Below, piece by piece: positions 6,883-27,980 of a stretch of DNA of 64,000 bases. This DNA comes from an uncultured Ignavibacteria bacterium (GTDB lineage Bacteria > Zixibacteria > MSB-5A5 > CAIYYT01), in NCBI GenBank assembly GCA_964576925.1, contig CAZNWJ010000010.1:2363-66362 (forward strand), read 5' to 3'. The notes below the pieces were generated by a model. It had not been told where the DNA came from. It searched no databases and saw nothing but the letters and a program-made list of their open reading frames with translations. The translations under genes and the position numbers were made by a program. Each line of letters opens with the position of its first letter. The first letter of the stretch is position 1.

Positions 6883-7104
6883 CTAACACCTGTCTAACAT
6901 AACTGGCCGAAACACGGGACAACACCGGACAGAATGAAAAGCATAAGTCTTTGTCAGTATTGTCCCGTCTTAGGGATGCCGTGAGAGCTCATCACGCGAA
7001 GATCAACTGTCGAAAATGCCTGGCTTAGCGGCGAGAAATCGGCCACAATTTGGTCACAGTGGCCAGTAAGTCCTTGTGCCACAACGCGAGTCTGGGGTTC
7101 GATT
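6883..7104 (+). repeat. att-like junction, copy 1 (diverged direct repeat of 27713-27964)
   Basis: Exact shared blocks with copy 2: GGGACAACACCGGACA (6916-6931), CACAATTTGGTCACAGT (7044-7060), CCACAACGCGAGTC (7079-7092). Also tandem 11-bp-period arm-like hexamers/heptamers (CTAACA x2, GG[C/T]CACA x2), IHF-like TAAGTnnTTG motifs, a tRNA-Met-like 18-mer (6987-7004) and GGGGTTCGATT (7095-7104). Confidence 0.7.
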
Positions 7105-7236
7105 ATCAAGTTCAGTTGGCGCTTCTAAGCTGTTAATAGACAACAAGATATAAACCCGTGTAAACGTGGCAAAGAGGCACGATTACAGCGCCGCCGCCTC
7201 AAAACTCTTCACCGAACATAAAGGACGCTTTGAGTC

Positions 7237-7440
7237 TTACAACCCGATCTTCGGAGTTCGGCTATAGCGTCCCTTCACCGATTTTGTGTTCAGCCACTTC
7301 TGAATCTCGTCGGGACGAAACCGCACGAAGTTTCCAATCTTCAAGTGAGGAATGTATTCAATATGAGTCCACTGGTAGATGGTTGACTTCTTCACACAGA
7401 GCATTTCGGCCAATTCTTCAGCTTTCAAGAGCCTGTCCAT
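7237..7440 (-). CDS. Excisionase/AlpA-like helix-turn-helix DNA-binding protein (HTH_17 type)
   Basis: MDRLLKAEELAEMLCVKKSTIYQWTHIEYIPHLKIGNFVRF is a typical HTH_17 pattern. GGAGG RBS precedes ATG 7440; gene lies next to the att-like junction. Confidence 0.8.
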   Translation of the reverse strand: MDRLLKAEELAEMLCVKKSTIYQWTHIEYIPHLKIGNFVRFRPDEIQKWLNTKSVKGRYSRTPKIGL

Positions 7441-7561
7441 GTCTTCAATACCTCCCGCACTCATCTGCTTATTATTGAGTTGATAGTTGTTCCTCGCCTC
7501 TCAGGGAAGTCCGGAGTGAATAACGTCATGACTGAAAGGGGACCCAGATTGCGCTTGACGA

Positions 7562-7590
7562 TCAATGAAAATGAGCTTTATTCAATGAAA
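7562..7590. promoter_or_regulatory. Direct repeat TCAATGAAA x2 (20-bp period) in the divergent promoter region between the HTH gene and the 9-gene operon; possible operator
   Basis: TCAATGAAA at 7562-7570 and 7582-7590. Function is inferred from position only. Confidence 0.3.
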
Positions 7591-7695
7591 GACATATTCA
7601 TCAACGACTGAACAATTGGTGCTTGCATTCAAGAGTTGCGACCCGATATTGTGAATTGATCCGGTAACAAATTCAGGCATAAAAGAGGCACGACC

Positions 7696-10600
7696 GTGAA
7701 CAACATTGCTTTTCCCCAGGCTCAGGCTGAGATGTCTGCACTTCTAAGCAGTGTCTCCAAGTACCTCTGCTCTTATCTTGGCAATCGACTTCCTTCAATC
7801 GCTGGTGACTGGTGGGAAAAGTGCGTGTTAGCGTGTCTAACCCCTGAACAAACAAGACGGGTCAAGAAGTACGGAACGAATTCTCTATCGGCACTGGATC
7901 TTGCCGCCCTGCTACGTATACTCGATCAGAACTGGCACAGAATTTCCACAAGCGAGAACTTGCCGCGAGAATCAAGGCACTTCTTGAAGGAGATGCAAAC
8001 AATCAGGAATCGTTGGGCACACGCAACGCTGGAAGGATTTTCGGTCGATGACCTGTACCGTGATCTCGATACTTTGCAACGATTTTCGACGATGATTGAG
8101 GCTGGGGAAGAGTTCGTCCAGATTGTGAAGGAGTTGAAGCGGTCGCTAGTCCATAGTGAAGAACAAAAATTGCCGGCGTCGGAGGTCGTCAGAGAGCAAG
8201 TCAACCAAGTGAAACGTTCCGAGTCCGACGAAATAAAACCGGGGCAATTAGTATGTCTAATCTCAAGACCCGATATTCATGGCGCCGTCATCGAGATGAT
8301 TCCAGGAAACCCCGAGAATCGATACAAGGTGTTTATTGAAGGAAAGGTTCAAGAATTCTATGCTTCACAGATTCAGTCGATTCAAACTCAAGAAGAAGAA
8401 TCGCTGGCCCTGACTGCCGATCATTTCCATGCATTTCTCACGTCACTGCAAATTCGTTATCCTGGGCTGGCAACGCTGTACTCATTGAATGCAGCTCGCA
8501 TCGATTATGTTCCTTACCAATTTCGTCCGGTGCTGAGGTTTATCCGTTCGGACCGACCTCGGCTTTTGATCGCCGATGGTGTAGGTGTTGGTAAGACTAT
8601 CGAGGCGGGATTGATTCTTCGCGAACTGCAGGCACGTCGGGATATTAGATCGATACTGATCATCTGTCCACGACCGTTGGTCACAGAACGAAAATGGCTG
8701 AACGAAATGAAGAGGTTCGAGGAACGATTCAGTCATTTGGACGGACCAACGCTGCGTTTGTGCATAAGTGAAATGGACTTGGATGGAAATTGGCCGGAAC
8801 AGTACCAGAAGATCATTGTTCCTTATTCACTATTTGATGAAACTCTGCTGCATGGCACGACTGCGGACGGCAAGCGAAAGCGCAAGCGAGGACTTCTTGA
8901 TTTGGATCCGCCGCCGCGATTCGATCTGGTAATTGTCGACGAAGCCCATCATATTCGAAACTCCAATACATATAGTCATCAAGCTGTCAGATTCTTCTGC
9001 GACCACGCTGAAGCGGTATTGTTCTTAACAGCGACTCCGATTCAGCTTGGGAGTCACGACCTGTTCGTGCTACTAAACACGCTTCGTCCCGACTTGATTA
9101 TCGATGAAGAGAGCTTTCGGCACATGTCTGAACCCAATGCGTTTATCAACCAGGCCGTCAGTGCTCTCCGCTCCCAAACAGATAGCAGTAATTTTCAATG
9201 TTTGGAGTCTCTTCAGCAAGCAGTAGACACCTCGTGGGGACGAGCGATTCTCAGGCAAAATCCGGAGTTCAATCGGGTCTGCACGGCCCTGCGCGAGAGT
9301 TTACTCTCCCCCGCTGAGCGAATCGAGCTGATCAGGGTTCTTGAAGATCTTCACACATTTTCGGGCATCATCAATAGAACGCGGCGACGAGACATCGGCG
9401 ACTTCACTATTCGTCAGCCAGAAACAGTGCGAATTGACTTCTCTCCGGACCAGCGCAAGCTTCACGACGAGTTGCTTGACGTCCAGGCGCAGGTTTTCGC
9501 CATGCTTCACGGCGACAAGAACGTGATGTTCATGCTGAGCACGATTCGTCGGCAGGCGGCGAGTTGCCTGTATGGCTTGGCACCGTTTCTGGAAGAGATC
9601 TTGAGTCGACACCTAGATGAACTCTCGTGGGATGAAGCCGACGATTCGCGTGGAGTTCCCAATCTCGAAGTCGTCACTCCGATCGAGTCAAGGATTCAAC
9701 AAGTTCTGGAAATGGCAAGGAATCTGGATCCCCGGGATCCAAAACTGGAGGCGTTGCGGAGAATCCTCCGAGAGAAGCAGCTTCTATCCAACAACAGAGT
9801 CATCGTCTTCAGCAGCTTTCGTCACACGCTTGGGTATCTTGAACGGCAGCTGTCGGCGGAGGGCCTACGAATTGCCCTGGTTCACGGTGACACTCCTGAC
9901 GAAGAGCGAGTTGAGCTTCGCAGCCGCTTTGAATTGCCTCGAGATTCAGAGCAGGCAATAGACGTCATGCTTTTTTCGGAGATCGGTTGTGAAGGTCTGG
10001 ATTATCAGTTTTGTGATTGCATCATAAACTATGACTTGCCGTGGAATCCTATGCGGATTGAGCAGCGCATAGGCCGTATCGATAGAAGGGGCCAAACGAG
10101 CGAGACCGTGGCCATCATCAATCTGATAACTCCGGGAACCATTGACGCGGACATCTACGATCGCTGCCTGCTACGTATCGGCGTGTTTAACGCCGCCTTG
10201 GGGGGCAGCGAAGAAATACTGGGGGAAATCCACAGTGAGATTCGCAATATCGCCGAAAACTTCATTCTGACGGAGGATCAAAGGAGAGAAAAACTGCAGC
10301 AGTTGGCGGATAACAAGATTCGCCTCTTGCAGGAGCAAGAAATGCTGGAGCAGCGACAACTTGAGCTGTTCGGTATTCGCTTGCCGGAGGAGCAGCTCAA
10401 GCAAGATATAGCGGATGCCACAAACTACTGGTTACTGCCAGAATCCCTGCTCAAGCTAGTCACTCACTACCTTCGATCGATTGCTGGCGCGGGTCAAGAA
10501 AGTATCCTTGGTGACAAACCCCTGAAGACCCTGCGCCTGTCTCAAGAAGCACGATCCCGACTACTGAGAGATTACCAGCAACTACCTCGGCAGAACACGC

Positions 10601-11286
10601 CGCCATATAGAGAGTGGGAGAATTGGCTCAAAGGAGGAGATCCGCACTTTTCGATCACCTTTGACCCAGATTGCGCGATGCTAAACCCCAAGACGGCTTT
10701 CCTGATGCCACTGCATCCGCTTGTAAAGCAAGCCGCCAATTCTCTTGATTCTGGTAGGCGAGTTTTCGCTTCACTGACGACAAAGAGCACAGAGGTTCCA
10801 GAAGGCAGGCACGAATTTGTAGTCTACCAGTGGCGGTTTCATGGGATCAAGGAGAATCAGATACTCCGCCCCGTGGCTACAAACGAAGCTGTAACTCAGC
10901 ACCTCGATGCTGTTCTTCAGGACTCATCTGACTGTAAGATCATAGAGCCCGGTGAACTTGGTCAGCAGACCTGGAATGATCTAGATCATAAGCATTATGA
11001 ACTTTGGGCCGAAGCCCGAGCGCAGCATCGTCGTCAGACACAGGAAATAGCTGCGTATCGTCGCGAGAGCCTGGCGGCCAGCCATCGCGCGCGTATTTTA
11101 CTGCTACAAGAGCAATTAGATCAGGCAAGCGATGACAGAATTCGGAAAATGCGTCAATCGCAGCTGGCCTCAGCGGAAGCCGATTATGCCAGACATCTTC
11201 AAGAGCTGGAAATTGCGGCCGAAAGGGCGGACATCACTGCTACTCCGGTGGCGTACGGCATGTTGGAGGTGGTGGCGAAGGCATGA
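7696..11286 (+). CDS. SNF2/RapA-like SF2 helicase with N-terminal Swt1-like HEPN domain
   Basis: LDLAALLRILDQNW...RNRWAH (HEPN RxxxxH); helicase motifs ADGVGVGKT, VDEAHH, LTATP, CEGLD and QRIGRIDR. Confidence 0.85.
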   Translation: MNNIAFPQAQAEMSALLSSVSKYLCSYLGNRLPSIAGDWWEKCVLACLTPEQTRRVKKYGTNSLSALDLAALLRILDQNWHRISTSENLPRESRHFLKEMQTIRNRWAHATLEGFSVDDLYRDLDTLQRFSTMIEAGEEFVQIVKELKRSLVHSEEQKLPASEVVREQVNQVKRSESDEIKPGQLVCLISRPDIHGAVIEMIPGNPENRYKVFIEGKVQEFYASQIQSIQTQEEESLALTADHFHAFLTSLQIRYPGLATLYSLNAARIDYVPYQFRPVLRFIRSDRPRLLIADGVGVGKTIEAGLILRELQARRDIRSILIICPRPLVTERKWLNEMKRFEERFSHLDGPTLRLCISEMDLDGNWPEQYQKIIVPYSLFDETLLHGTTADGKRKRKRGLLDLDPPPRFDLVIVDEAHHIRNSNTYSHQAVRFFCDHAEAVLFLTATPIQLGSHDLFVLLNTLRPDLIIDEESFRHMSEPNAFINQAVSALRSQTDSSNFQCLESLQQAVDTSWGRAILRQNPEFNRVCTALRESLLSPAERIELIRVLEDLHTFSGIINRTRRRDIGDFTIRQPETVRIDFSPDQRKLHDELLDVQAQVFAMLHGDKNVMFMLSTIRRQAASCLYGLAPFLEEILSRHLDELSWDEADDSRGVPNLEVVTPIESRIQQVLEMARNLDPRDPKLEALRRILREKQLLSNNRVIVFSSFRHTLGYLERQLSAEGLRIALVHGDTPDEERVELRSRFELPRDSEQAIDVMLFSEIGCEGLDYQFCDCIINYDLPWNPMRIEQRIGRIDRRGQTSETVAIINLITPGTIDADIYDRCLLRIGVFNAALGGSEEILGEIHSEIRNIAENFILTEDQRREKLQQLADNKIRLLQEQEMLEQRQLELFGIRLPEEQLKQDIADATNYWLLPESLLKLVTHYLRSIAGAGQESILGDKPLKTLRLSQEARSRLLRDYQQLPRQNTPPYREWENWLKGGDPHFSITFDPDCAMLNPKTAFLMPLHPLVKQAANSLDSGRRVFASLTTKSTEVPEGRHEFVVYQWRFHGIKENQILRPVATNEAVTQHLDAVLQDSSDCKIIEPGELGQQTWNDLDHKHYELWAEARAQHRRQTQEIAAYRRESLAASHRARILLLQEQLDQASDDRIRKMRQSQLASAEADYARHLQELEIAAERADITATPVAYGMLEVVAKA

Positions 11287-14200
11287 ATATGAAACTCAAT
11301 ATTAATCAGCTATCAGAGAGGCGAAAGAGCTGGGTTGAAGCGAATCGGCAGAATGGGTTCGAGGACGGAATTAAACGATTACTAACCGATCTCTATCCTG
11401 ATAACGCTCATTTTATATACGAACTCCTCCAGAATGCTGAAGATGCCGGTGCTACCGTTGTTCGATTCATCCTCAACGAAAATAATGTTGAGTTCGAGCA
11501 CAACGGAAGTCGTCTATTCTCGATAGAGGATGTTGACTCAATTACGAGTATAGGCGTCAGCAATAAAAGAGACGATCCCACCAGCATAGGGAAGTTTGGA
11601 GTTGGATTTAAGGCAGTATTTGCCTATACCCTAACTCCGCAAATAAAATCTGGCGACTTCCATTTCTGCATTCGCGACTTGGTTGTGCCAGTCACTGACG
11701 GTTTGATCCCATGCAATCGTGACAGAAATGATACGTTCATGACTTTTCCATTCGACAACCCGAAAATGCCGACTGAAAAGGCTCTAGCGAATATTGAAAA
11801 GCATCTTCGCCAATTGAACGAAAACACCCTGCTATTTCTCAGAAATATCAAACGCATTGAATACCTTTTGCCGGATTTAGGTCTGGGTTTTCTTGAACGA
11901 AGGGAAACGGAAGATAACCGTCTGGAGATTTCTGTCCAGCATCCGAATGAACTAGCGCCCTCCACTTTGCACTATCTCCGGTTTCAAAAACAAACTGAGA
12001 TTCGCGACGAGGACGGCAGTTCGAAATCATGTTCAATTGCCATCGCCTTCGCACTAGAGAAGGCGGAAGAATTAGGGTCTGAAAAGTCGCTCAAACGGTC
12101 CGAATTGCAGAATACAACGGAGTGGCGAATACGACCACTGAATCCGGGCCAAGTATTCATCTATTTTCCTACAGAGAAAGAAACTTCCAATCTCCGATTT
12201 CACATGCACGCTCCTTTCGCGTCCACCGTGGCACGCGATAGTGTTCGCGATTGTCCGGCAAATATTGAGTTGCGGGATCAATTGGTAGGGTTGGTTGCGG
12301 AGTCGATGCTTGCGATACGGGATCAAGGACTGTTGACAGTTCGATTCTTGGCAACGCTTCCAAATGACAAGGATAGTCTCCCAGTCTTCTACAAACCATT
12401 TATCGATGGGTTAGTAGAGACCTTCAAGGACGAGGCCTTAACCCCGATGAGAAATGGGGAGCATGCGCCTGCATCCGACATCTTCAGAGGCTCAGCTCAA
12501 TTGGCAAACCTAGTAACTGATGAAGACTTTGTAGCCCTCCTGGGCGAATCTTACACTCCACCGATGTGGGTGGCAAACCCACCTCAACGAAACCAAAGGG
12601 AAGATACCTTTTTGAATATGCTGGAGATCAGTGAATGGACTGCGGAAGACTTGGTTCGCGCACTCTGCGACAAGCCCAACACACTGGAGTTGTTCTTGGC
12701 CTCTAAAACCGACTTATGGCATCAGCAGCTCTATGTATTGTTAGCGGATTACCTGTCAGATGCTCCATCTGTTCCGTATCTGGAAGCGCAGAATCGCAAG
12801 CGATCTTTGGCGACTCTCCGCATAGTTCGGAGGTCCGATGGCAAGTACGGATCTGGAAGCGAGTGTTACTTCCCCAGTGAGGGAGTCGATCAGGACGATT
12901 TGATGCCGCGCGTCGCCAAAGGTGTTTACACTTCCGGAAGGAGTGAAGACCAGCAAGCTAAGGCAAAAGACTTTCTTCTGAAAATCGGTGTTCGTGAAGC
13001 AGGCGAGGCTGAACAAGTCGAGGCGATCCTCAAGAGCCGCTACTCAGATGATGCCGACGAAACAGGTAGTTTTGCACCCAAAATAGAGGATATCAAGCGA
13101 TTTGTTACCTTAGTCGAAAGAGAACCATTCCAGGCGAATCTGTTCAGCGAATATTCCATGTTTCAATTGAAAGACGGTGACTGGGGCAGACCACAAAGCG
13201 TATACCTGGACACGCCGTTTGGTGATACTGGTCTGAGCGCACTATATGATCTATTGGGCGAAAAGGCAGACCGCTGGGCACTTTCCCCAGACTACAAGAA
13301 ATGCGGCGTAGCAGTTGACAGAATTGTAGACTTTGCTAGAAGAGCCGGTGCTCAAAACAAATTGAACGTGATTTCGCTAGAGCAGTATTATTCTCAAGAT
13401 TATACAATCAATCACTTGGATCTTGCGCTGCAGGCTAAAGACTCTTCCATCTCCAAATTGATCTGGAAGACACTCGTTGAATTGGAGAGTGGATATGTTA
13501 TTGAGCAGTATGCTCACCGGTTGGTGCGGAAGCGAGTGAACTTCTATTACGATGGGGACTCAGAGTTAATCTCCAGGCTAAAGCATAGTGAATGGGTGCC
13601 TCAAGCCATGGCGAAGGAGCTGTCATTCGTTAGGCCGACTGATGCTGATCCGAAGTTACTTCCTGGCGGTTATTCATTTGACAAAGGCTGGAAATGGGTA
13701 GCTGCAGTCGATTTTGGCTGTTCTGTCCGCCAACGAGAGGAGGCAGCACGCCTTCAATCACAAAGCAAGAACGAGGCCATCCAACAGCTAAACGAAGTCG
13801 CACACAAACTGGGATTCGACTCGGTGAGTGAGGCCAGGGAGATGGCGGAGCTGAAGCGGTTGGACCCGAGCGGCTACAAGCGATGGCTTGAGCGCAACAA
13901 GCAGAAGCCAACATTTCCAACGCGAAATCCAGCGGATCCTGAGCGTCGCAGTGGAAAACTCACTGAACAACTCGATGAGGCGCCGACCAGAGAATTCCAG
14001 AAGCGCCAGAGAAGCGTCCGCACGACAAGGGGAGCGATCAACCCAGTACCATCGCTAAGGAGCCTATACACCAATCAAGACGACCAGATGATTTGTCAGT
14101 TGTGCAAGGAAGAAATGCCTTTTCGAAAGAGGTCCGGAGAGCACTATTTCGAAGCGGTCGAAGTCCTGTCCCAAGAGCTGTTGCCGAAAGAACACGAGGC

Positions 14201-14411
14201 CCAATATCTAGCGTTGTGTCCTTTGTGCGCAGCTATGTACAAGGAGTTTGTGCGGCACGACGAAGTTGTGATGTCGGCGCTCAAGCAGGCAATTCTGGAA
14301 TCCGAGGATCCGGAGATCAAACTGCAGCTTGGTGAGGTAGAGACTACTCTACAATTCGTTGAAACTCACTTCTTTGACTTGAAGACAATTCTCGGGGCCG
14401 ATAGCCCGTAG
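11283..14411 (+). CDS. Sacsin/MORC-type GHKL ATPase with C-terminal HNH-like Zn-finger domain
   Basis: HFIYELLQNAEDA and SIGKFGVGFKAVF GHKL motifs; C-terminal CQLC...YFEAVE...LALCPLC. ATGA overlap with the upstream gene. Confidence 0.8.
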   Translation: MNMKLNINQLSERRKSWVEANRQNGFEDGIKRLLTDLYPDNAHFIYELLQNAEDAGATVVRFILNENNVEFEHNGSRLFSIEDVDSITSIGVSNKRDDPTSIGKFGVGFKAVFAYTLTPQIKSGDFHFCIRDLVVPVTDGLIPCNRDRNDTFMTFPFDNPKMPTEKALANIEKHLRQLNENTLLFLRNIKRIEYLLPDLGLGFLERRETEDNRLEISVQHPNELAPSTLHYLRFQKQTEIRDEDGSSKSCSIAIAFALEKAEELGSEKSLKRSELQNTTEWRIRPLNPGQVFIYFPTEKETSNLRFHMHAPFASTVARDSVRDCPANIELRDQLVGLVAESMLAIRDQGLLTVRFLATLPNDKDSLPVFYKPFIDGLVETFKDEALTPMRNGEHAPASDIFRGSAQLANLVTDEDFVALLGESYTPPMWVANPPQRNQREDTFLNMLEISEWTAEDLVRALCDKPNTLELFLASKTDLWHQQLYVLLADYLSDAPSVPYLEAQNRKRSLATLRIVRRSDGKYGSGSECYFPSEGVDQDDLMPRVAKGVYTSGRSEDQQAKAKDFLLKIGVREAGEAEQVEAILKSRYSDDADETGSFAPKIEDIKRFVTLVEREPFQANLFSEYSMFQLKDGDWGRPQSVYLDTPFGDTGLSALYDLLGEKADRWALSPDYKKCGVAVDRIVDFARRAGAQNKLNVISLEQYYSQDYTINHLDLALQAKDSSISKLIWKTLVELESGYVIEQYAHRLVRKRVNFYYDGDSELISRLKHSEWVPQAMAKELSFVRPTDADPKLLPGGYSFDKGWKWVAAVDFGCSVRQREEAARLQSQSKNEAIQQLNEVAHKLGFDSVSEAREMAELKRLDPSGYKRWLERNKQKPTFPTRNPADPERRSGKLTEQLDEAPTREFQKRQRSVRTTRGAINPVPSLRSLYTNQDDQMICQLCKEEMPFRKRSGEHYFEAVEVLSQELLPKEHEAQYLALCPLCAAMYKEFVRHDEVVMSALKQAILESEDPEIKLQLGEVETTLQFVETHFFDLKTILGADSP

Positions 14412-14422
14412 GATGGAATTAA

Positions 14423-18160: not shown

Positions 18161-18221
18161 AGCATGACTATGTGTTGCGTACTTAGAACATTCTCGTTGC
18201 ACACTCAACAGTGGGGTCCTC

Positions 18222-18599
18222 ATGTCAGAAGAACAATCGATAGCGGCAACTACAGAGAGTCTGAGAAAGTCGCTAATCAAAATTGCAGTTGAATCTTGGA
18301 GGGTCAGCCGAGTTATTCAGAGGATTTTGATGAAGCTCGATGCCGGCGAGCAAAACCGATTCCGGAGTCAGATGTCTTGGTTCTTGAAGAAAGTTGAGGA
18401 ATCTCTTAAGGAAGCAGATATGCGAATCGTCAACGTTGAGGGGCAACCGTTTGATACTGGAATGGCAGCGACACCGCTCAACATAGAAGAGTTCGGCGAG
18501 ACGGATAGGTTAATAGTTGATCAGATGCTTGAGCCGATCATCATGGCGAATGAAGGTCTGATCAGACCCGGCACTGTCATACTCAGAAGGGTTGAATAA
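18222..18599 (+). CDS. GrpE-like small protein (putative nucleotide exchange factor)
   Basis: Helical N-half followed by LKEADMRIVNVEGQPFD...PIIM...GTV, resembling the GrpE beta-domain; TAATG overlap with the Hsp70 gene. Confidence 0.6.
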   Translation: MSEEQSIAATTESLRKSLIKIAVESWRVSRVIQRILMKLDAGEQNRFRSQMSWFLKKVEESLKEADMRIVNVEGQPFDTGMAATPLNIEEFGETDRLIVDQMLEPIIMANEGLIRPGTVILRRVE

Positions 18600-21094
18600 T
18601 GAAGACATATGTTGGTATTGACCTCGGAACGACAAACAGCGCGATTTGTTCCTACGATGGGATGGCTACCCGCATTTGGAAAAGCCCAGAACAAAATGAT
18701 GTCACACCGTCTGCGATCTATATGGACAAGCGTGGCAACAAGTATGTGGGCAAGAGAGCCTATGATTCAGCACCATATAGCCCAGACAGTTCTGCCATGT
18801 TGTTCAAGCGACTCATGGGAACAAACACACCGCTCAACTTCACGGCACTGGGACTGACGATGTCACCGGAAGAGTGCTCCGCGGAGATTCTGAAGGTGCT
18901 TTTCGGATACCTGCCCGAGGAAATCAGAAATGGTTCTGATACCGGGACCGTGATTACCGTTCCCGCAGTCTTCGATCAGATGCAGAAGGATGCAACCATG
19001 CAAGCGGCGAACATTGCCGGAATTGGCAAAATCGCTCTCATGCAAGAACCTGTAGCGGCCGTCATGAGCGTCATGCGAACCCGCAACACCGATGGCATGT
19101 TTCTAATCTATGACTTGGGTGGAGGAACACTCGACATTGCCATAGCGCAGAGCATCGGTGGACGCGTCAGCATGCTTGCCCACGGAGGCATCGCAATGTG
19201 CGGGGGTCGAGAATTCGACCGCCTTATCGTTGACAGTATCGTTCGCCCTTGGCTTCTCGATACTTTTAGCTTGCCAGATAACTTCATGGTCGACCCAAGC
19301 TTCAAGTCGTTGGTTCGACTTGCGACTTGGGCAACTGAAAAGGCCAAGATCGAGCTTTCTTCCGTAGACGAAGCCGTGATCAGCCTATCTGAAACCGAGA
19401 CTAGAACTCGTGATCTAAAAGGGAAGGAAATTTACTTCGACATCCCGTTACCCAGGAGATCGTTTGACAGCCTGATCGATAAGTTGCTGGACGAATCAAC
19501 TGAAGCAGTTCGTGCTACCGTTTCGAAAGCTGGACTTACTCCTCACGATCTGGAGCGCATAGTGTTCATTGGTGGCCCAACTCATTATAAACCGTTGAGA
19601 GACAAGGTGGCCATCGCGGTGGGTATACCGGGAACCGCTGATGTGAATCCCATGACCGCTGTCGCCGAAGGGGCGGGCTTGTTTGCGGAGTCGGTTGACT
19701 GGAGTTCCCAGAGCCACTCGAGGAAGAGTTCTCGTGGGCAAATGTCGTCTGGCGGCGCACTGGCGGTGACGTTTGCATACAACTCACGGACTCCGGACGT
19801 GAGATCGAGAATCGTGGTTCAGATCGCTGGGCAGGTTGTTCCAGGATCGGAGTTTCAGATAGACAGTGTCGGTACTGGATGGACCTCCGGGCGCGTTTCG
19901 CTCAAGCCAGGTGCCAGTATAGATGTGACGCTCCACAAGGCTGGCGAGAATGTCTTCAAGGTGTTTGTGTTCGACTCTTTAGGTGGACCTCTTGCCTTGG
20001 AACAAGACAAGATCATCATCACAAGAACGGCAGCGACAGTTGACGCCATCCCCGCCTCGCATTCGATTGGCGTCGAAGTTCTCGAAAAACTGGGAGGCCG
20101 GCCAGTACTCCATTACTTAGTGCGCGCAGGCGACGCTCTTCCAAAGAAAGGCAGAGAGACATTCAAGGCGGCAGAGTCCTTAAAGGCAGGGGCAGCCAGT
20201 TCCTTGAATTTCAAGCTTTGGGAGGGTGAGATCGAGGATCCGGTCACGGACAATCGAGCGATTGGGGTTCTCAAGATAGCGGGTTCGGATTTCGATGACG
20301 GTGTGATTCCCGCCGGAGCGAACCTTGAATGTGAATATGAGATTCGTGACTCCGGAAACATCATGATAGAAGTTTCTGCCCCCTGTATTGGCGGCACATT
20401 TCATTCCGACAAGAATTTCTATTCGCGCCAGGAGGGCCAGCGCGACTATAGTTCGGATTCACAATTGATCGTTGAAGAGGGCGAGCAAACCCTGTCTCGA
20501 ATCGACAAAATCAACGAAGTGGTCGATGACCCCCGGATTGACCAAGCGCGCGAAAAACTCGACCAGGCAATCTTGCTTGATACGCAAGAGTCCGATCCGG
20601 AAACGGCAAAGAAGGCGCATGAGGACATCCTTGCGGCCAGAAGGATCCTCGCTCAAGTAAGAAAAGAGCATCTCAGAGAGATCAGGCAGATCGATCTCGA
20701 TCTCGTGGTCTCGTATTTCGACGATCATATTCGCCAATACGCTCGCCCATCCGAAGAAACGGCTTTTGACAATTTGGCGAAGACGGCGCAACGATCCATC
20801 GAGAGAAATGACCGGGATTTCGAGTATCATGTCGGCGAACTCAGGAGCAAGAATTTCGAGATTCTGTGGCGTCAGGACTGGTTTGTCATCGATCGTTTCA
20901 ATTATCTTACGAAATCGCCGCAATCGTTTTCTGACAAGATCCGATTTAAAGATCTTGCGCGAGCTGGTGCTCAGCTCCTGCAGGCTGACGACATCGATCA
21001 ACTTAGGGATATCACTTCACAGCTTTATCAAATCAGGATCTTTGTTGGGTCCGAGGACGACATGTCTGATCCTACGAATATCATGCGGGGATGA
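18599..21094 (+). CDS. Non-canonical Hsp70-family protein (intact ATPase domain, atypical extended C-terminus)
   Basis: YVGIDLGTTNS, VITVPA, IYDLGGGTLD and FIGGPT Hsp70 motifs. At 831 aa it is longer than DnaK, with an extra beta-rich insertion. Confidence 0.9.
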   Translation: MKTYVGIDLGTTNSAICSYDGMATRIWKSPEQNDVTPSAIYMDKRGNKYVGKRAYDSAPYSPDSSAMLFKRLMGTNTPLNFTALGLTMSPEECSAEILKVLFGYLPEEIRNGSDTGTVITVPAVFDQMQKDATMQAANIAGIGKIALMQEPVAAVMSVMRTRNTDGMFLIYDLGGGTLDIAIAQSIGGRVSMLAHGGIAMCGGREFDRLIVDSIVRPWLLDTFSLPDNFMVDPSFKSLVRLATWATEKAKIELSSVDEAVISLSETETRTRDLKGKEIYFDIPLPRRSFDSLIDKLLDESTEAVRATVSKAGLTPHDLERIVFIGGPTHYKPLRDKVAIAVGIPGTADVNPMTAVAEGAGLFAESVDWSSQSHSRKSSRGQMSSGGALAVTFAYNSRTPDVRSRIVVQIAGQVVPGSEFQIDSVGTGWTSGRVSLKPGASIDVTLHKAGENVFKVFVFDSLGGPLALEQDKIIITRTAATVDAIPASHSIGVEVLEKLGGRPVLHYLVRAGDALPKKGRETFKAAESLKAGAASSLNFKLWEGEIEDPVTDNRAIGVLKIAGSDFDDGVIPAGANLECEYEIRDSGNIMIEVSAPCIGGTFHSDKNFYSRQEGQRDYSSDSQLIVEEGEQTLSRIDKINEVVDDPRIDQAREKLDQAILLDTQESDPETAKKAHEDILAARRILAQVRKEHLREIRQIDLDLVVSYFDDHIRQYARPSEETAFDNLAKTAQRSIERNDRDFEYHVGELRSKNFEILWRQDWFVIDRFNYLTKSPQSFSDKIRFKDLARAGAQLLQADDIDQLRDITSQLYQIRIFVGSEDDMSDPTNIMRG

Positions 21095-21097
21095 ACG

Positions 21098-22564
21098 ATG
21101 TCCAAAGATAGGTGGCTGCCGACGGGTTTTGAGTTGCCCGACCGATCGAAGGTTGGCTCTTGTCTGTACTCTGCGGAGAGTTGGCAACAATTTGAGATAC
21201 AGGGTGGCGGATTCGTGCTTATTGCTCTTCCACAGTTGGCCGAGAAATGGTCAATGATTGGTTTGCTCGATGAGTCCTCACTCGGAAACATCACATTCGG
21301 CTCAAGCTGCTTCAGGTGCCTGGTCAGTCAGAAGAGGTACACCCTGGCGCCGATCGAAGAGTGTACGTCGCCAGATAACAAAGTAGATGCACTTGCCTTT
21401 GCCGTTGCACTAAACACGTCTCGAAAAGTATCACCGGATGCTTCGTTTCACGACGCGATTTATGTAGAGCAGCTTTCCCGGCTCCTGCCGACATGGACAC
21501 TCACTCCACGAGTGGACGACGAGTTGGTTTTGGGACGCTGGCTTACAGGTGGAGTACTCATTCCCACAACTTCATTCAGACGTCTGTGTAGTCTGATGGG
21601 CTGGTTATCCCCGAATGACTTACTTGATATTGTCAAGTCGGCGGGCCTCAAAATACCGACCGGCTCTGAGTTAGGTGCTGGAGGATCGCCACTCTTTCTG
21701 AGTCGTTCTAATGAGGGCATCGTGGATGAAGTGGTACCCGTGAAATGGGAACAACCACAAACTCTCGAGGCTGGCTCAGGAACACGGGTGTTCAGCCTTC
21801 CCGGACGGCCAAAGCTTGAGGAGTTCTTTTGCGATTATGTGATTGATATTATTTTCAACCCTCTGAAATACCAAGCGCTAGGCATCGACTTTCCTTCGGC
21901 AATCGTTCTGCATGGTCCTTCTGGCTGTGGTAAGACTTTTGCTGTAGAGCGACTAGTTGAGTTCATTGATTGGCCCAGCTACTCGATTGACTCCAATAGC
22001 GTCGGCAGTCCTTACATACATGAGACCAGCAAGAAAATTGCCGAAGTCTTCGATAAGGCTATCGATAACGCTCCTTCGGTTATTGTAATCGACGAAATGG
22101 AATCGTTCCTGTCCAACAGACTTGCGGGCGGATCGTCTAGTCTACACCATGTAGAGGAAGTAGCGGAGTTCTTACGACGCATACCAGAGGCTATCAAGAA
22201 AAAAGTTCTCGTCATTGGTATGACAAACATGATTGAGATGATCGATCCAGCCATTCTTAGGCGAGGACGCTTTGACCAGATCTGTGAGGTTGGGATGCCT
22301 TCGAAGCAGGAAACTGCTTCACTTCTGGAAACGCTCCTAAACAAAATTCCGCGGTCGGAGAATATCAATCTTGATACCGTAATTGATGCTTTGACCGGCA
22401 AACCTTGTTCAGATTTGGCGTTCGTCGTCCGAGAAGCAGCAAGGATCGCAGCAAAATCCGGGAAAGCTCAAATTGATCAAGACAGTATGACTGTAGCTCT
22501 CGAAAGTCTCGCTAGTGATAGCGATAACGAGGCCAAGAGGATCGGATTTTCCAGAGACACATAG
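21098..22564 (+). CDS. AAA+ ATPase (CDC48/FtsH-like AAA module) with uncharacterised N-terminal domain
   Basis: GPSGCGKT (Walker A), VIVIDEME (Walker B), IDPAILRRGRFD (second region of homology). No protease domain or TM segment. Confidence 0.9.
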   Translation: MSKDRWLPTGFELPDRSKVGSCLYSAESWQQFEIQGGGFVLIALPQLAEKWSMIGLLDESSLGNITFGSSCFRCLVSQKRYTLAPIEECTSPDNKVDALAFAVALNTSRKVSPDASFHDAIYVEQLSRLLPTWTLTPRVDDELVLGRWLTGGVLIPTTSFRRLCSLMGWLSPNDLLDIVKSAGLKIPTGSELGAGGSPLFLSRSNEGIVDEVVPVKWEQPQTLEAGSGTRVFSLPGRPKLEEFFCDYVIDIIFNPLKYQALGIDFPSAIVLHGPSGCGKTFAVERLVEFIDWPSYSIDSNSVGSPYIHETSKKIAEVFDKAIDNAPSVIVIDEMESFLSNRLAGGSSSLHHVEEVAEFLRRIPEAIKKKVLVIGMTNMIEMIDPAILRRGRFDQICEVGMPSKQETASLLETLLNKIPRSENINLDTVIDALTGKPCSDLAFVVREAARIAAKSGKAQIDQDSMTVALESLASDSDNEAKRIGFSRDT

Positions 22565-22576
22565 GGTAGCGATTTG

Positions 22577-24901
22577 ATGGACTTACTTCAGAACCCCTTT
22601 CATATCCTTTGCGCGACGCTAAGAGACAACCACAAGCGAATCGTTGAACTTGCGGACGAATGCAGAATGCAGTCCGATTCATATGATTTTGTGCAAGCTC
22701 GTCTCGATCTGACAAATCCAAGAAGACGGTTATCAGCAGAGATAGCGTGGCTGCCTGGACTTGCCCCCACGCGCGCAGTTGAAATACTTTCGATGCTAGA
22801 ACATTTGCCCATAAATTTCCAGCGATTGGGTAAATTGACTCCGATAGCGCGAGCGAATGTACTCGCGGCTGGACTGTCGAGGCTAAGTGTCAACCAGCCC
22901 GAAAAATATGCCGAGTGGATCATCGAACTAGCACAGGCTTTTGAGCAAGTTGATTCGAAAGAGCTCGCTCGGTTAATCAACGAAGACCGAAGCGTTTCGG
23001 GCTTCCCAAGAGTTACCGATCAATCGGCGATTGAAGAAGTGCTACGGAATCAACGCAACTACTATTGCCGAGTGATGAAGACCGCCCTGGACGATCTTGT
23101 TGACAGAAGATTTGAGGGAATCAATATCGCTGTAGATCTTGCGACTGATCATGGGAGGACGCAAGGGCTAATTCTCTTGGACGACCTGGTTGACACTTAT
23201 GAGATCGAAGTAAATACACTTGCTGAAGCCGAACATAGGAACATTGATACATTAGTCGAGCAACTGCGAGTTTCAGCAACAGCACGAAGGGCGAGTGCCG
23301 CATTGACGGAACGTATGAGAGCATTGATGCTGGCTGTCAAGAATTTGGATGCCGCCGTCCAGCCCATTCAGACAAGCAAGATGGTCCGCGGCTTGAGCGA
23401 TGCTGACGGTGATCCGAGATCGGATGTTGCCACAGAACTCTACAAGCTCGCATTGGTTCTCGAAGAGCAAGACAAGCTTGCTGAAGCGGAGATGTTATAT
23501 CGAAGTGCGCTTCACCTCCATGAGAAAGCCCGGGGCCTCGACCATCCCGAAGTCGCAATCAGCTTGGTCCGAATCGCTGGTCTCCTCCATCGTCAAGACC
23601 TGCCTGAAAGAGCGGAACAGCTTTACAAACGTGCCTTGGGAATCAGGGAAAATGCGTTTGGTCTCGAACACCTTGAAGTTGCTTCGGTCCTAGACGACCT
23701 CGCAACCCTCTACTCCGATCAAGGCCAATTTGTCAGAGCCGAGCAATGTTACATACGCGCCTTGGAGATTAGGAAGGGAGCCCTAGAATCTGACGATCTC
23801 AATCTGGCCGAGAGCTTCAGCAATCTTGCTGTATGCTACGATAATCAGGGCAAATACGTCGAGGCAGAGCAGCCTTACAAGCGCGCACTGCAGATTAGGA
23901 AGAAGGCGCTGGATGCCGACGACCCTGATTTGGTTTCAAGCTTCGAGGATCTTGCCACCTGCTATGATAATCAAGGTCAATACGCAACGGCAGAGTTGTT
24001 TTATAAGCGCGCGTTGGCGATCAAGAAGAAGATCCTAGATGCTAATAGTCCTGAACTGGCGATATCCTTTCACAATCTTGGCCGGTGCTATGTCCATCTA
24101 AGTGAATATGCAAAGGCAGTTCTACATTATAAGCGTGCATTAGCGATTAGAGAGAAGGTCCTTGATTCGGACGATCTTGACCTAGCGACGAGCTTAAACA
24201 ATCTTGCTGTTTGTTATGGGAATCAGGACAAAGACACCAAAGCGGAGCCACTCTACGAGCGGGCATTGGCGATTAGGGAGAGGGTCTTGGACTCAGACGA
24301 TCCCGACTTAGCAAGGAGCCTAAGCAATCTTGCTATATGTTATGCGAATCAGGGCAAGTACACCAAAGCCGAACCTCTCTACAAGCGGGCATTAGCGATT
24401 AGAGAGAAGACCCTCGGTTCCGACGACCCCGCTGTGGCGACAGTCTTGCGCAGTCTCGCCGACGTCTATTACTTTCAGGAGAACTACGTTAAGGCGGAGC
24501 CACTATACAAACGTGCTCTAAAAATCAGGGAAAAACACTATGGTCGCGATCATCTCGATGTAGCTTTGATCTTGGAAGACCTTGCTTTGGTTTACCTGAA
24601 TCAAGACAAATACGCTGAGGCAGAGCCACTGTTCAAACGCGTCCTGGCAATCAGAGAAAAAAACCTCGGTTCCGAACATCCCGACGTGGTGTCAGTCCTG
24701 CGCAGTCTTGCCGATGTATATTACTTCCAGCAAGATTATGTTGAAGCGTACTCGCTATACAAACGTGTCCTGCCGATCATAGAAGCAACCTTGGGCCAAC
24801 ACCATCCCGACGTAGTCGAGATTTATACCAAGATATTGGAGATCGCCAACTCGCTATCTCTGGAAGCAAAAAGGGCTCTTGGTCGAGCACGGCTGCGATG
24901 A
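22577..24901 (+). CDS. J-like (HPD-less) N-terminal domain + helical domain + 11 kinesin-light-chain-type TPR repeats
   Basis: NPFHILCAT...DLTNPRRRL resembles J-domain helices I and IV; 42-aa repeats follow. N-terminal ~275 aa is paralogous to 24983-26641. Confidence 0.75.
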   Translation: MDLLQNPFHILCATLRDNHKRIVELADECRMQSDSYDFVQARLDLTNPRRRLSAEIAWLPGLAPTRAVEILSMLEHLPINFQRLGKLTPIARANVLAAGLSRLSVNQPEKYAEWIIELAQAFEQVDSKELARLINEDRSVSGFPRVTDQSAIEEVLRNQRNYYCRVMKTALDDLVDRRFEGINIAVDLATDHGRTQGLILLDDLVDTYEIEVNTLAEAEHRNIDTLVEQLRVSATARRASAALTERMRALMLAVKNLDAAVQPIQTSKMVRGLSDADGDPRSDVATELYKLALVLEEQDKLAEAEMLYRSALHLHEKARGLDHPEVAISLVRIAGLLHRQDLPERAEQLYKRALGIRENAFGLEHLEVASVLDDLATLYSDQGQFVRAEQCYIRALEIRKGALESDDLNLAESFSNLAVCYDNQGKYVEAEQPYKRALQIRKKALDADDPDLVSSFEDLATCYDNQGQYATAELFYKRALAIKKKILDANSPELAISFHNLGRCYVHLSEYAKAVLHYKRALAIREKVLDSDDLDLATSLNNLAVCYGNQDKDTKAEPLYERALAIRERVLDSDDPDLARSLSNLAICYANQGKYTKAEPLYKRALAIREKTLGSDDPAVATVLRSLADVYYFQENYVKAEPLYKRALKIREKHYGRDHLDVALILEDLALVYLNQDKYAEAEPLFKRVLAIREKNLGSEHPDVVSVLRSLADVYYFQQDYVEAYSLYKRVLPIIEATLGQHHPDVVEIYTKILEIANSLSLEAKRALGRARLR
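23423..24808 (+). repeat. Eleven tandem 126-bp (42-aa) TPR coding repeats
   Basis: Repeats counted in the translation, from DVATELYK to GQHHP; 11 x 126 bp spans 23423-24808 exactly. Confidence 0.85.
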
Positions 24902-24982
24902 GCAGCGAAATGAGAAGTCCCGACGCCGGGAGAACAAAGAAGGCGCAGGAAATCTCAACAGGATAATAAGTCGGTAAATAGC

Positions 24983-26641
24983 GTGGACATTTTCCAGAAT
25001 CCTTTTCACATACCAGGTGCGAGCCCCCGAGACCACCGACGAAGGCTCTTGGAGCTATCGGAAGAGCGCAATATCTTGTTTGATTCGAGCGACTGTACCC
25101 GTGCCTTTTCTGATTTGACAAATCCCAGGAGACGATTGTCAGCGGAGATTGCCTGGCTACCGGGACTTGGGCCAAAACGAGTTAGCGAAACTTTGTTCGT
25201 GCTTCAGAATTCAGTATCTGAGACGCTCGCTCTGGAAAAACTGGGTCCGATCGCAAGAGCGAACTCGCTCGCCGCTGGACTTCGGACAATTAGCGCAACT
25301 ACTCCGGATTTTGTTGCAAGATGGATATCCGAACTTGCGCGGGCCTTTGAGGAAGTTGATCCCGACAAGTTGCGCGCACTGATCAACGAAGATCGAATAG
25401 TTGGCGGTTTCCCTGAGGTAACCAGCTTGGCGATGGTGGAAGAAGAAATCCAGGAACGACGCCGACATTATCGAAATATCATCAAGTCTGCACTGGACTC
25501 ACTTCCCTCGCGGAAGTTAGTGGAACAGGTTACCGAGGTGGTAGACGTTACCACTAGTTGCGGACAGAAACACGCGCCCGTCTTGGTTGACGATCTGGTT
25601 GATACGTACGAAATCGAGGCTCGTGCTTTCTTCGAGAGAGAGACAAGGAACATCGAGAAATTGACTGAGCGGCTTCTGCTGGCCGCGGCAGCGAAGAGAC
25701 CCGACTCGACTCTGACGGCGCTCGTTGAACAGCTTGTCTCGGTGGTCAAGAATTGGGACTCCGTTGCACAGCCGATCCAGGTCAGCACAAGCAGCCGTGG
25801 ATTGGATCACGGTTCGAGTTATCAGGTAGCCGGAATTGTCAGAAGTGCAGCAGTCGAGCTTTTCAATGAGCACGATAAACTGGCTCTTGCACAACGACTT
25901 ACGGACCTGCTCAATGAAGTTTTTGCCGAAGTTATCGAGGTCGCGGAGCGAACTTCCGAAGACGTCACCGCACTTAAGGAAATTGCTGAAAGGCGCGTCC
26001 AGTCCATTGAGGACGCGAATATTCAGGCCGACGTTTTTCGTGATGAGATCACTTATGAGGCGCAAGTGGGCCTTTTCAGAACCACCCTTCGTATTTCACC
26101 GGAAGGAATTGAATGGGGTAGTCGTTATTGGAACCTGGACTCCATAACGCATATCAGTTGGGGTGGTACGAGAAACTCACTCAATGGAATCTTCACTGGA
26201 ACATCCTTCAGCATCAATTTTGAATCTGCGGATGACCATTGTTCGATTACGCTCAGGAATCAGGAAATTTACGACAATTTTGTCCGTCGCCTTTGGAAGG
26301 CTGTGGGCGTCAGGCTCTTGACCGAACTTCTCGAAGGATTGCGAAGCGGGCAGCGATATGAGTTCGGTAATACCGTGATTGATGATTGTGGAGTCGAATT
26401 CCAGCGCATGGGACTCACTTCTTGGTATGGACGCGTTTACTGTCGTTGGGCTGAAGTATCGGAATGGAGCGCGAATGGCGAGTTCTTCATCGGAAAGAGG
26501 GGAGATAGAGAGCTTATTGAGAGTTTTTCATATCAATTTCAGGGTAACATCCATATTCTCGCCACGGCCATTGAGGCTTTCAAGAAGCGAGGAGGCGATC
26601 GATTGAGTAGCCTCTTAGGGAACAACGACAATGCACCATGA
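24983..26641 (+). CDS. J-like (HPD-less) paralog with beta-rich C-terminus resembling tandem bacterial PH domains
   Basis: NPFHIPGAS...DLTNPRRRLSAEIAWLPGL matches the upstream gene. C-terminus LRISPEGIEW...W.LDSITHISWGG is PH-like by inspection only. Confidence 0.65.
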   Translation: MDIFQNPFHIPGASPRDHRRRLLELSEERNILFDSSDCTRAFSDLTNPRRRLSAEIAWLPGLGPKRVSETLFVLQNSVSETLALEKLGPIARANSLAAGLRTISATTPDFVARWISELARAFEEVDPDKLRALINEDRIVGGFPEVTSLAMVEEEIQERRRHYRNIIKSALDSLPSRKLVEQVTEVVDVTTSCGQKHAPVLVDDLVDTYEIEARAFFERETRNIEKLTERLLLAAAAKRPDSTLTALVEQLVSVVKNWDSVAQPIQVSTSSRGLDHGSSYQVAGIVRSAAVELFNEHDKLALAQRLTDLLNEVFAEVIEVAERTSEDVTALKEIAERRVQSIEDANIQADVFRDEITYEAQVGLFRTTLRISPEGIEWGSRYWNLDSITHISWGGTRNSLNGIFTGTSFSINFESADDHCSITLRNQEIYDNFVRRLWKAVGVRLLTELLEGLRSGQRYEFGNTVIDDCGVEFQRMGLTSWYGRVYCRWAEVSEWSANGEFFIGKRGDRELIESFSYQFQGNIHILATAIEAFKKRGGDRLSSLLGNNDNAP

Positions 26642-27317
26642 TGAGGAAGCTCGTGGATTTGCCGGTCTTGTTTTCTTGGCATCGACGATCAGTGATGTCG
26701 ATGAAAAAGCTGGCACAACTGGTCAATTGCCTTCTTCCAAACAAGAGTCGGCAAGGTCAGATACCAGTTCGAGCAGTACAACAACTCGGACGACCTTGGA
26801 TTCACCTCGACCGATCGGAAAGTCGAGCGGAGGCAAGGATTTCTGGCTGAATCGCATTCGGATCATCGCTGTATTCGCTTTCCTCATGATCGTTGCCTGG
26901 GCGACCATTGATGCGGTCAGAGATCGGCGCGAATCGCCCGGTACTGAAACTCCCCCAGCGCCTGGAAACGCCAATCCAGTACAAAACCCGCCACGAAGTT
27001 CCAATCAACCCCGCCCCTCGGTAACGCAGTCTCGTCCGCGACCACCTATTGGAGTTGACTTGGCTAGTCAGATCGAGTCCGAAAAGGCACAAGTTGTCAA
27101 GATGGAAGGCCAAATCGGCGAGATGGATGACCGTCTAGATAAACTCCGACGAAGCATGAAATCATACGAAGATTTAGAAATGATCGATGAGTACAATGAG
27201 TTGGTCCCGATATACAATTCGGTACTTGATCAGCGAATCGAGCTGTACAGCAAGTACGATCGCCTTATTAACGAGATCAACGCAAAGGTGAAGCGATACA
27301 ATTCTGGAGAACGGTAA
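26631..27317 (+). CDS. Single-pass membrane protein: Ser/Thr-rich N-terminus, TM helix, Pro-rich linker, coiled coil
   Basis: TM IIAVFAFLMIVAWATI; PPAPGNANP linker; heptad-rich C-terminus; 11-bp overlap with the upstream gene. Confidence 0.7.
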   Translation: MHHDEEARGFAGLVFLASTISDVDEKAGTTGQLPSSKQESARSDTSSSSTTTRTTLDSPRPIGKSSGGKDFWLNRIRIIAVFAFLMIVAWATIDAVRDRRESPGTETPPAPGNANPVQNPPRSSNQPRPSVTQSRPRPPIGVDLASQIESEKAQVVKMEGQIGEMDDRLDKLRRSMKSYEDLEMIDEYNELVPIYNSVLDQRIELYSKYDRLINEINAKVKRYNSGER

Positions 27318-27847
27318 GATAAGATCGTGTATTTGACAAGCTTCGAGGACCCGTAACTCACCGTAGTTTCGCCCTTAGCCATTCGTAGAACCTGTAGTAT
27401 TACAAGAAAGTATCGTAGACAAGATACACATTACAGTAAGAAAAGAACCGCATTCTGGAATAGAAAAAGTTGGAAGAGTTCAATAATGAGAGAGGGGGCT
27501 AGGAAACTCTCATAACACTTGACCTTTTCCCGAGTGCAAAATAGAACTTCTGATACCAGACGCAGGTGGTTTCAGCATAAGCGTTCAGATTATTCGATGC
27601 TATCGAAAAGTGCTTCTGATCGCTTAAACCGAATACTGATTCTCTGGATTCGGAGTCCAGATTTAGCTGACGGCCGTCAGCAGTAGGTTTCACGATTGAA
27701 ACACGCTCATTGTTAACACTTTGCTAACAGACTGAGCCAAAACAATGTATGATAAGGGACAACACCGGACAATTGGAACTCGCATAAGCTCTTGATGTTG
27801 TTACAGCTTATTGTCCGGTGTTGTTTACTGGATGGGCGTCAGAAAAA

Positions 27848-27873
27848 GCTCATAACCCTAAAGTCGTGGATTT
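27848..27873 (+). pseudogene. Fragment resembling the anticodon-to-T-arm region of initiator tRNA-Met
   Basis: GCTCATAACCCTAAAGTCGTGGATTT compared with the typical tRNA-fMet GCTCATAACCCGAAGGTCGTAGGTTC. No 5' half and no CCA end, so not a complete tRNA. Confidence 0.55.
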
Positions 27874-27954
27874 CTCGCTGAACTGTTGATCTTCACAAAA
27901 ACGGTCACAATTTGGTCACAGTACGGTTTAAGCCATTGTCCCACAACGCGAGTC

Positions 27955-27980
27955 GGGGGTCGAGCCCCCCACCTCCACCA
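27955..27980 (+). pseudogene. Degenerate 3' end (T-arm + acceptor strand + CCA) of tmRNA or tRNA-Ala; probable displaced attR copy
   Basis: GGGGGTCGAGCCCCCCACCTCCACCA: T-stem-like G5/C5 followed by CACCTCC-ACCA, which would pair with a 5' GGGGGTG giving the G3:U70 alanine identity pair. The T-loop is shortened. Confidence 0.65.

Follow-up and report, generated by a model that had tools for sequence, protein, structure and literature searches.

A probable genomic-island array at the ssrA 3' end of an uncultured sludge bacterium, with an integrase-less cassette of putative defence genes

Tandem genomic islands bounded by repeats of the ssrA 3' end, with insertion at the T-loop of the transfer-messenger RNA (tmRNA), have been described in Dehalococcoides (PMC3146451). 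They are the closest described case to the locus reported here, which lies in 64,000 nucleotides (nt) of DNA from an uncultured bacterium, called the window below. A segment of about 21 kb in it, cassette B (7105-27980), carries probable anti-phage genes at the 3' end of ssrA; it is preceded by one copy of a complex junction and ends with another. The window probably shows the distal part of a genomic-island array at the ssrA 3' end, with cassette B as an integrase-less, decayed and fixed remnant.

Two other groups of elements are useful for comparison. In the accretion seen with ICESt1 and ICESt3 of Streptococcus thermophilus, an integrase-less cis-mobilizable element (CIME), flanked by attachment (att) sites, forms a tandem with a related element that uses the same target; CIMEs have functional att sites, and their co-excision with an integrative and conjugative element (ICE) has been demonstrated. 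Lambda-type attP arms, and those of ssrA islands of the P4/CP4-57 type with AlpA, combine a long arm carrying tandem repeats with a symmetric-stem core, and P4/CP4-57-type islands carry a small HTH_17 excisionase or AlpA-like gene near one end, facing the att site. Among the islands of the Islander database, 125 tandem arrays of two or more members are recorded at tRNA and tmRNA genes, and attP sites in the T-stem region form the commonest class (PMC4383910). The original prediction for our locus described an integrase-less cassette between two diverged att junctions, which an integrase acting in trans could excise or reshuffle.

Two copies of one junction

Local alignment of 6863-7102 with 27693-27963 gives 179 identities in 230 aligned columns (78%) and a score of 145, against a mean of 25.8 (standard deviation 3.2) and a maximum of 40 in 200 shuffles. 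The paired arms also appear with MAFFT and in a repeat-family search (repeat family D3), and the two direct copies of a complex block that had been predicted are thus confirmed. The element-derived arm of the left junction occupies 6863-7092 on the plus strand and holds the repeats, a 16-mer, a 17-mer, a palindrome and a 14-mer; that of the right junction (27693-27954, plus strand) has its motifs in the same order. The sub-blocks are collinear in both copies, and the offsets first given, 20840 and 20862, are correct.

Each arm begins with a CTAACA/TTAACA hexamer pair at 11-bp spacing (6883-6888 and 6894-6899 on the left, 27713-27718 and 27724-27729 on the right). An exact 16-mer, GGGACAACACCGGACA, follows at 6916-6931 and at 27756, with a short inverted partner at 6960-6968 in the left arm, and then an exact 17-mer, CACAATTTGGTCACAGT, at 7044-7060 and 27906, which consists of two GGYCACA units 11 bp apart. 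Last comes an exact 14-mer, CCACAACGCGAGTC, at 7079-7092 and 27941, overlapped in the left copy by the palindrome TTGTGCCACAA (7074-7084) and followed directly by a T-stem and T-loop. Each of the three exact words is confined to the two junctions in the 64 kb, where the chance expectation is about zero, and a search of the window for further junction copies, which had been proposed as a check, found just these two. The right arm contains in addition a perfect 17-bp inverted repeat, 27757-27773 and 27810-27826. Together with the tandem repeats at 11-bp spacing, this inverted repeat likely provides candidate binding sites for an integrase and an excisionase, to judge from the sequence.

The inverted-repeat pair at 27757-27826 has a 36-nt spacer, and the left arm keeps only a short version of it. 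Just before the right arm lie a long imperfect hairpin (27570-27634) and a 16-bp perfect palindrome, GCTGACGGCCGTCAGC, at 27666-27681.

Two proposed details of the junction fall away. The motif resembling a binding site for integration host factor (IHF) has no match to WATCAANNNNTTR in either block, and the tRNA-Met-like fragment comes down to the heptamer CTCATAA, which has 7 chance occurrences in the window, at a place where ARAGORN and Rfam are blank.

Several other kinds of element were considered for these junctions. No inverted match of at least 9 nt links 7050-7750 to 27600-28020, except one chance 9-mer; inverted terminal repeats were not found at the cassette ends, and a transposon, Tn7-like or other, is therefore rejected. 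An integron cassette array is rejected too, the junctions being direct arms of about 240 nt plus a tmRNA core, with no integron integrase. Nor is the block a gene for a tRNA, a tmRNA or another Rfam RNA, since it gives no ARAGORN hit and none at the Rfam gathering score; in E-value mode, Rfam returns only chance hairpins of the microRNA type from the blocks of the window.

The ssrA 3' end as target, and its empty form

The left junction ends in a core remnant at 7093-7104 (plus strand), TGGGG TTCGATT, which is the 5' half of a tmRNA T-stem with its T-loop. It is preceded by GAGTC and followed by ATCAAG, and lacks both the 3' stem half and the acceptor; CCCCCCACCTCCA was not found near it and has its sole occurrence at 27965. 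At the right junction, a displaced ssrA 3' fragment (27955-27980, plus strand) reads GGGGG TCGAG CCCCCC ACCTCC ACCA, that is, a T-arm, the 3' strand of the acceptor, and CCA. Its T-loop, TCGAG, is altered and two bases shorter than the native TTCGATT. The T-arm originally proposed for both copies is therefore whole on the right; on the left it stops inside the T-loop, at 7104.

The undamaged form of the core, GGGGGTTCGATTCCCCCCACCTCCA, is held by related copies in three metagenome contigs, L001-L003. As an exact 25-mer, this form occurs at 46 IMG/VR loci. At about 30 of these, ARAGORN calls a tmRNA gene, standard or permuted, whose T-arm/acceptor end coincides with the 25-mer, and at none does the 25-mer overlap an ARAGORN-called tRNA gene. 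The Rfam tmRNA model matches the T-arm of L001 with E = 7e-4; the permuted-tmRNA match of the same contig is weak (23 bits, E = 0.35) and covers the T-arm only. In L067, a metagenome-assembled genome (MAG) of Zixibacteria, a tmRNA gene with the tag GELNYAMAA ends in CGGACGGGGGTTCGATTCCCCCCACCTCCA, and the intact form of the displaced fragment at 27955-27980 is identical to this 3' end. The shared 3' core is the T-arm and acceptor end of ssrA, not a tRNA. We take the U of its CACCUCC to be at the position of the G3·U70 alanine-identity pair.

Upstream of the T-stem the relationship to ssrA stops. True tmRNAs have GGAC there, whereas all block copies have GAGTC, GAGCC or GAGTA. Because GGAC is missing before the T-stems of the block, the roughly 240 nt to the left are element DNA rather than ssrA, and a reading of this part as tmRNA body is ruled out. 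With ARAGORN and Rfam, no tRNA or tmRNA gene was found anywhere in the window. What the window does contain, as expected of an island at a tRNA or tmRNA gene, is a displaced 3' target fragment at the distal end, in the orientation of the gene.

The empty form of the site is found in a close relative. In the sludge run X8 the right flank is present with 95-99% identity, and one of its contigs, 283 nt long, consists of CGGACGGGGGTTCGATT followed by window positions 27965-28230 with 3 mismatches. Its junction is a canonical ssrA end (CGGAC-GGGGGTTCGATT-) fused directly to the flank, of which just 17 nt of ssrA are visible; depth in X8 is essentially zero over cassette B and likewise over island A, the segment to the left of the first junction. 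The X8 contig is an empty attB, exactly at the predicted boundary. Lack of such a site in related genomes had been named beforehand as evidence that would overturn the original prediction, which comes through this comparison: both blocks are junctions of the att type, belonging to islands that target ssrA, and the X8 breakpoint makes the right one the boundary between island and chromosome. The same copy coincides with a step in guanine-plus-cytosine (GC) content from about 50% to about 58%; GC is about 49-50% across 1-28000 and 54-60% past 28000.

A second pair of occupied and empty sites, independent of X8, supports this conclusion. In L067, ssrA is directly followed by a module of a nucleotidyltransferase, a small open reading frame (ORF) and a DUF6880 protein; in the contigs L002 and L065, a junction block precedes the same module (DUF6880 67% identical), and at least 9.5 kb of other genes lie upstream of the block. 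Taken together, the two pairs indicate that the block family is a marker, in two or more lineages, of where DNA integrated at ssrA ends on the right. The stretches compared are 8359-8723 in L067 and 9573-9820 in L002. In L002 and L065, AbiEi/AbiEii and an AEP-TOTE primase-helicase come after the nucleotidyltransferase/DUF6880 module, and this Zixibacteria ssrA flank may itself be old mobile DNA. Elsewhere the yield was small: a GTDB scan with the junction block gave 0 hits, one with Fur gave only relatives of at most 64% identity, whose loci, as far as retrieved, show no synteny and contain no tmRNA gene, and runs X10, X11, X12 and X15, examined for an empty site, have thin coverage.

The cassette itself is integrase-less, as predicted. 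No integrase or recombinase domain was found in any ORF of 1-28000 with Pfam, PHROG and TIGRFAM-type profile searches, and tblastn with the tyrosine integrase of contig L054 found nothing in the window; the integrase usual inside a tRNA or tmRNA island is not present in this DNA. The excisionase-like gene said to face the left junction is there, at 7237-7440 on the minus strand, with the ribosome-binding site GGAGG. Its 67-aa product, of the excisionase (Xis) family or AlpA-like, contains a helix-turn-helix domain (HTH_17, E = 8.6e-12), matches PHROG 66 and scores 38.5 bits with TIGR01764 'excise' (cutoff 28.8). We found three homologues only, all on short contigs; the one in L054, 63% identical, adjoins the tyrosine integrase.

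Integration history and present state of cassette B

In the history we propose, the right end of each unit would be an attP-type element arm of about 240 nt, then a piece of the ssrA T-arm. Cassette B (7105-27980) would have integrated at ssrA first, which would account for a right junction holding the host's displaced ssrA 3' end, with its CCA, beside the chromosome. A related unit, A, with an arm 78% identical, would then have entered the regenerated ssrA upstream, so that the 'left junction' of B is in fact the right arm of A. Finally B would have decayed, through loss of its integrase (as opposed to original absence), loss of the 3' half of the left core and mutation of the right T-loop. 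It would now serve as a defence-gene island and no longer circulate actively; that B is such a fixed remnant is the most likely case.

The state of the two cores bears directly on mobility. At att sites of the T-stem type, the core-binding sites are usually the two halves of the stem, with the loop between them as the overlap, and tyrosine recombinases require identical overlap regions. Seen this way, one site of B is minus a half-site and the two overlaps are unlike each other: without the 3' T-stem half on the left, and with TCGAG in place of TTCGATT on the right, the crossover regions differ. B resembles a CIME in being att-flanked and without an integrase (or transfer genes), and it keeps an Xis-family gene; a pair of intact, recombinable att sites is not what its sequence offers.

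Metagenomes point the same way. Contigs bridge both junctions unchanged in X1 (2019), X2 (2025) and X3 (2017), one X1 contig extending 2.3 kb past the window start, and X4 (2024) has cassette B with its right arm up to 27980; depth over B is even in X1, X3 and X4. Neither a deleted form nor a joined circle, the latter having been proposed as a check, occurs among the assembled contigs of the runs examined, in which rare forms are invisible. No contig joins 7104 to the right flank of the window; those that leave the left block at 7104 enter other flanks, and a B-less hybrid junction was rejected as an explanation of these candidates. With both cores damaged and the layout the same in four independent metagenomes, the idea that the cassette can be excised or reshuffled at present is not supported.

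The junction belongs to a larger family. In X1, X2 and X4, several more contigs per run match 7044-7104 only, at 85-93% identity; most of them continue with CCCCCCACCTCCA into varied flanks, and their upstream sequences vary too. Other contigs match the outer arm, 6863-6918, with different flanks (X1, X2, X4 and X8 among the runs). Such scattered matches fit a group of ssrA-targeting elements that is widespread and conserves its arm sites. No integrase lies beside any examined block copy; around the copy in L002 and L065, some 9.5 kb on the upstream side and some 9 kb on the downstream side were covered. In X1 (record 8) and X4 (record 20), an unrelated locus matching window 7049-7106 shares the T-loop breakpoint of the left junction, right after TTCGATTAT; it reads GGGGTTCGATTAT, then TTCGGGTTTTCG. 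Past the left core, window 7115-7195 weakly resembles the stretches of approximately 150 nt downstream of the T-arm in L001 and L003 (score 34 versus 22 ± 3), which end in a second GTCACAATTTGGTCACAGT; the resembling DNA may be either a P' arm or native spacer. IMG/VR scans with the arm motifs gave nothing relevant. The exact 19-mer GTCACAATTTGGTCACAGT also occurs at 1267-1285 of L006, an IMG/VR provirus in an isolate genome, about 100 nt past the stop codon of a putative integrase C-terminus read by eye; one match of this kind is about the chance expectation.

Some of these observations, and the material itself, weigh against a decayed remnant in an ssrA array. The metagenome evidence consists of assembled Logan contigs, from which rare variants are dropped, so that missing circles and deletions are weak evidence. 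The placement at ssrA is drawn from the displaced fragment and the X8 contig with its 17 nt of ssrA, and the left end of the array is beyond the window, where the intact ssrA gene and any integrase, if present, would lie. The lack of an integrase could be a design feature of the family and not a result of decay. Arms that are well conserved across many contigs and samples suggest that the sites are still under selection somewhere, and the shared T-loop breakpoint suggests a recurrent site-specific event, not random decay.

Could B still be a working cis-mobilizable unit? An integrase encoded elsewhere, in the upstream array or a related element, would act with B's own Xis to recombine the junctions and reshuffle cassettes, as in CIME/ICE accretion. 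We consider this unlikely, though it is the best of the alternatives. Motif order is kept in both arms, the Xis-family gene is intact with a good ribosome-binding site, the community contains many conserved copies of the block, and the lack of an integrase beside any copy examined fits action in trans. Integrase-less units of ssrA arrays have, moreover, been proposed as CIMEs in Dehalococcoides (PMC3146451). On the other hand, the left core is without its 3' T-stem half and acceptor, the presumed overlaps are non-identical, the arms are only 78% identical, the assembled contigs of all runs hold neither a deleted nor a circular form, and the arrangement was constant from 2017 to 2025.

Alternatively, A and B might be one element, acquired once, whose inner junction is an internal duplication or a relic from a previous host. 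Their equal GC (about 49-50%) and equal depth in every run that holds them would agree with this, as would the lack of any run with A alone or B alone and the incomplete inner core; the likeness of 7115-7195 to post-T-arm DNA in L001 and L003 could then be carry-over from an earlier site. However, a recent duplication would have left arms more alike than 78%, the inner copy is built exactly like an attR junction, arm plus core, and tandem accretion at ssrA is the usual origin of such structures. We find a single acquisition improbable.

An equally improbable view makes the whole junction family an ssrA-anchored store of integrase-less cassettes, with one conserved arm of about 240 nt each, where a single integrase encoded elsewhere, at the array head or on a helper element, would insert into any T-arm core, displaced and non-functional copies included. 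Secondary-site insertions of this sort would agree with the TTCGATT/AT break that recurs at two loci unrelated to each other, and with the lack of an integrase next to all block copies examined; if such a store were real, defence cassettes would accumulate and exchange in the manner of an integron while ssrA stays unbroken.

It is very improbable that the block has nothing to do with island boundaries and is instead a dispersed repeat or a gene for a small RNA that ends like a tRNA: its 60-nt core block does recur with different flanks in many contigs within single metagenomes, and L001 does give the weak permuted-tmRNA match, but the 64 kb contain two copies only, both at gene-content boundaries and the right one exactly at the empty-site breakpoint, neither Rfam nor ARAGORN finds a gene, and the sequence upstream of the GGTCACA motif differs among copies.

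Gene content, host and relation to known islands

The cargo of cassette B is a run of nine co-directional genes on the plus strand, 7696-27317. It begins with a HEPN_Swt1 plus SNF2 protein that is DrmD-like (7696-11286; DrmD model, E = 1e-112), a sacsin-type ATPase that matches TmtA models (11283-14411) and a superfamily 1 (SF1) helicase of 1245 aa (14423-18160), matched end to end by PDC-S68 with 1595 bits. Next are a small ORF with no assigned function (18222-18599), an Hsp70-like protein of 831 aa whose DnaK match is confined to the ATPase domain (18599-21094), an AAA ATPase resembling IetA/IteA (21098-22564), a TPR protein (22574-24901) and two further genes without assigned function (24983-26641 and 26631-27317), all on the plus strand. 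The predicted defence cargo is borne out in so far as these genes match defence-system models by homology. A DISARM system was rejected: the DrmD-like SNF2 protein is the sole component, with no DrmB, DrmC or methylase. No defence model fits the six co-directional genes of 18222-27317 as a group, which from its gene content is a candidate new defence module beside the HEPN-SNF2, sacsin and PDC-S68 genes.

Island segment A (1-6862, plus strand, GC about 49%) is partial, its left end being outside the window. On the plus strand it encodes a Tubulin_2-like protein of 956 aa (232-3102; Pfam), a 738-aa protein without assigned function (3124-5340) and a 391-aa protein weakly like transglutaminases (5345-6520; Pfam). 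Relatives, among them those in L062-L064, have a conserved module of VWA, Tubulin_2, a protein of about 728-730 aa and one of about 359-360 aa; the Tubulin_2 homologues, at 41% identity or less, give no help in placing the left end of A. In L062-L064, toxin genes and a type III CRISPR-Cas (Cmr) locus lie next to the Tubulin_2 module. The genes of island A match no PADLOC model, and their module is possibly an uncharacterised conflict system.

The chromosomal flank (27981-32000) starts with three tandem paralogues on the minus strand beside the att site (28045-29175, 29197-30564 and 30634-31992); fur and katG, on the plus strand, come next. The paralogue units are 1437 bp apart and about 80% identical, with a GC of 54%, between the island and core values; the first is weakly like phage tail-fibre PHROGs, and all three are also present in the island-free relative in X8.

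The best relatives of Fur, at 55-64% identity, are in Ignavibacteria and Zixibacteria MAGs, and the window sequence is found in sludge, wastewater and biofilm metagenomes. The host is an uncultured bacterium of activated sludge, Ignavibacteria/Zixibacteria-like and of the Fibrobacteres-Chlorobi-Bacteroidetes (FCB) group. The locus provides a record of an ssrA integration hotspot and of its empty site in a poorly known bacterium of this group. Its arm signature (CTAACA twice, GGGACAACACCGGACA, GGTCACA twice, CCACAACGCGAGTC) offers a means of searching metagenomes for sibling islands, and its cargo is a catalogue of candidate defence genes, with one group of HEPN-SNF2, sacsin-ATPase and PDC-S68 and another of Hsp70-like, AAA and TPR proteins.

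How does this locus compare with the systems cited at the outset? Its arms resemble those of lambda and the P4-type islands, although they have no strict IHF consensus and the excisionase gene has no adjoining integrase. The CIME of S. thermophilus differs from cassette B, in which one core is cut short and the other is mutated, and for which the contigs show no excision product. Like Islander islands, the array has as its endpoint a displaced 3' target fragment in gene orientation, but a tandem member in Islander needs an integrase of its own (PMC4383910). Cassette B has none; it ends in a fragment, and that of A is half a T-arm, so that strictly the pair does not count as an Islander tandem.

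The ssrA islands of Dehalococcoides share more with our locus: a conserved motif just upstream of each repeat that cannot be aligned with ssrA, integration genes on the reverse strand at the left edge, and some units without an integration module, discussed as cis-mobilizable or fixed (PMC3146451). Here the arm is much longer (about 240 nt) and contains repeats of three kinds, the cargo consists of defence genes instead of dehalogenases, and the host phyla also differ. So does the recombinase, which is a CcrB-like serine type in Dehalococcoides (PMC3146451); the sole clue here, the Xis relative in L054, suggests that the more likely partner is a tyrosine integrase, accompanied by an excisionase. 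In terms of mechanism, nothing goes beyond the known tandem tmRNA islands, unless integrase-less units served in trans prove to be the right reading. Tandem ssrA islands with an integrase-less remnant are an already known arrangement, of which this locus is an instance whose inner unit is minus its integrase and part of one recombination site.

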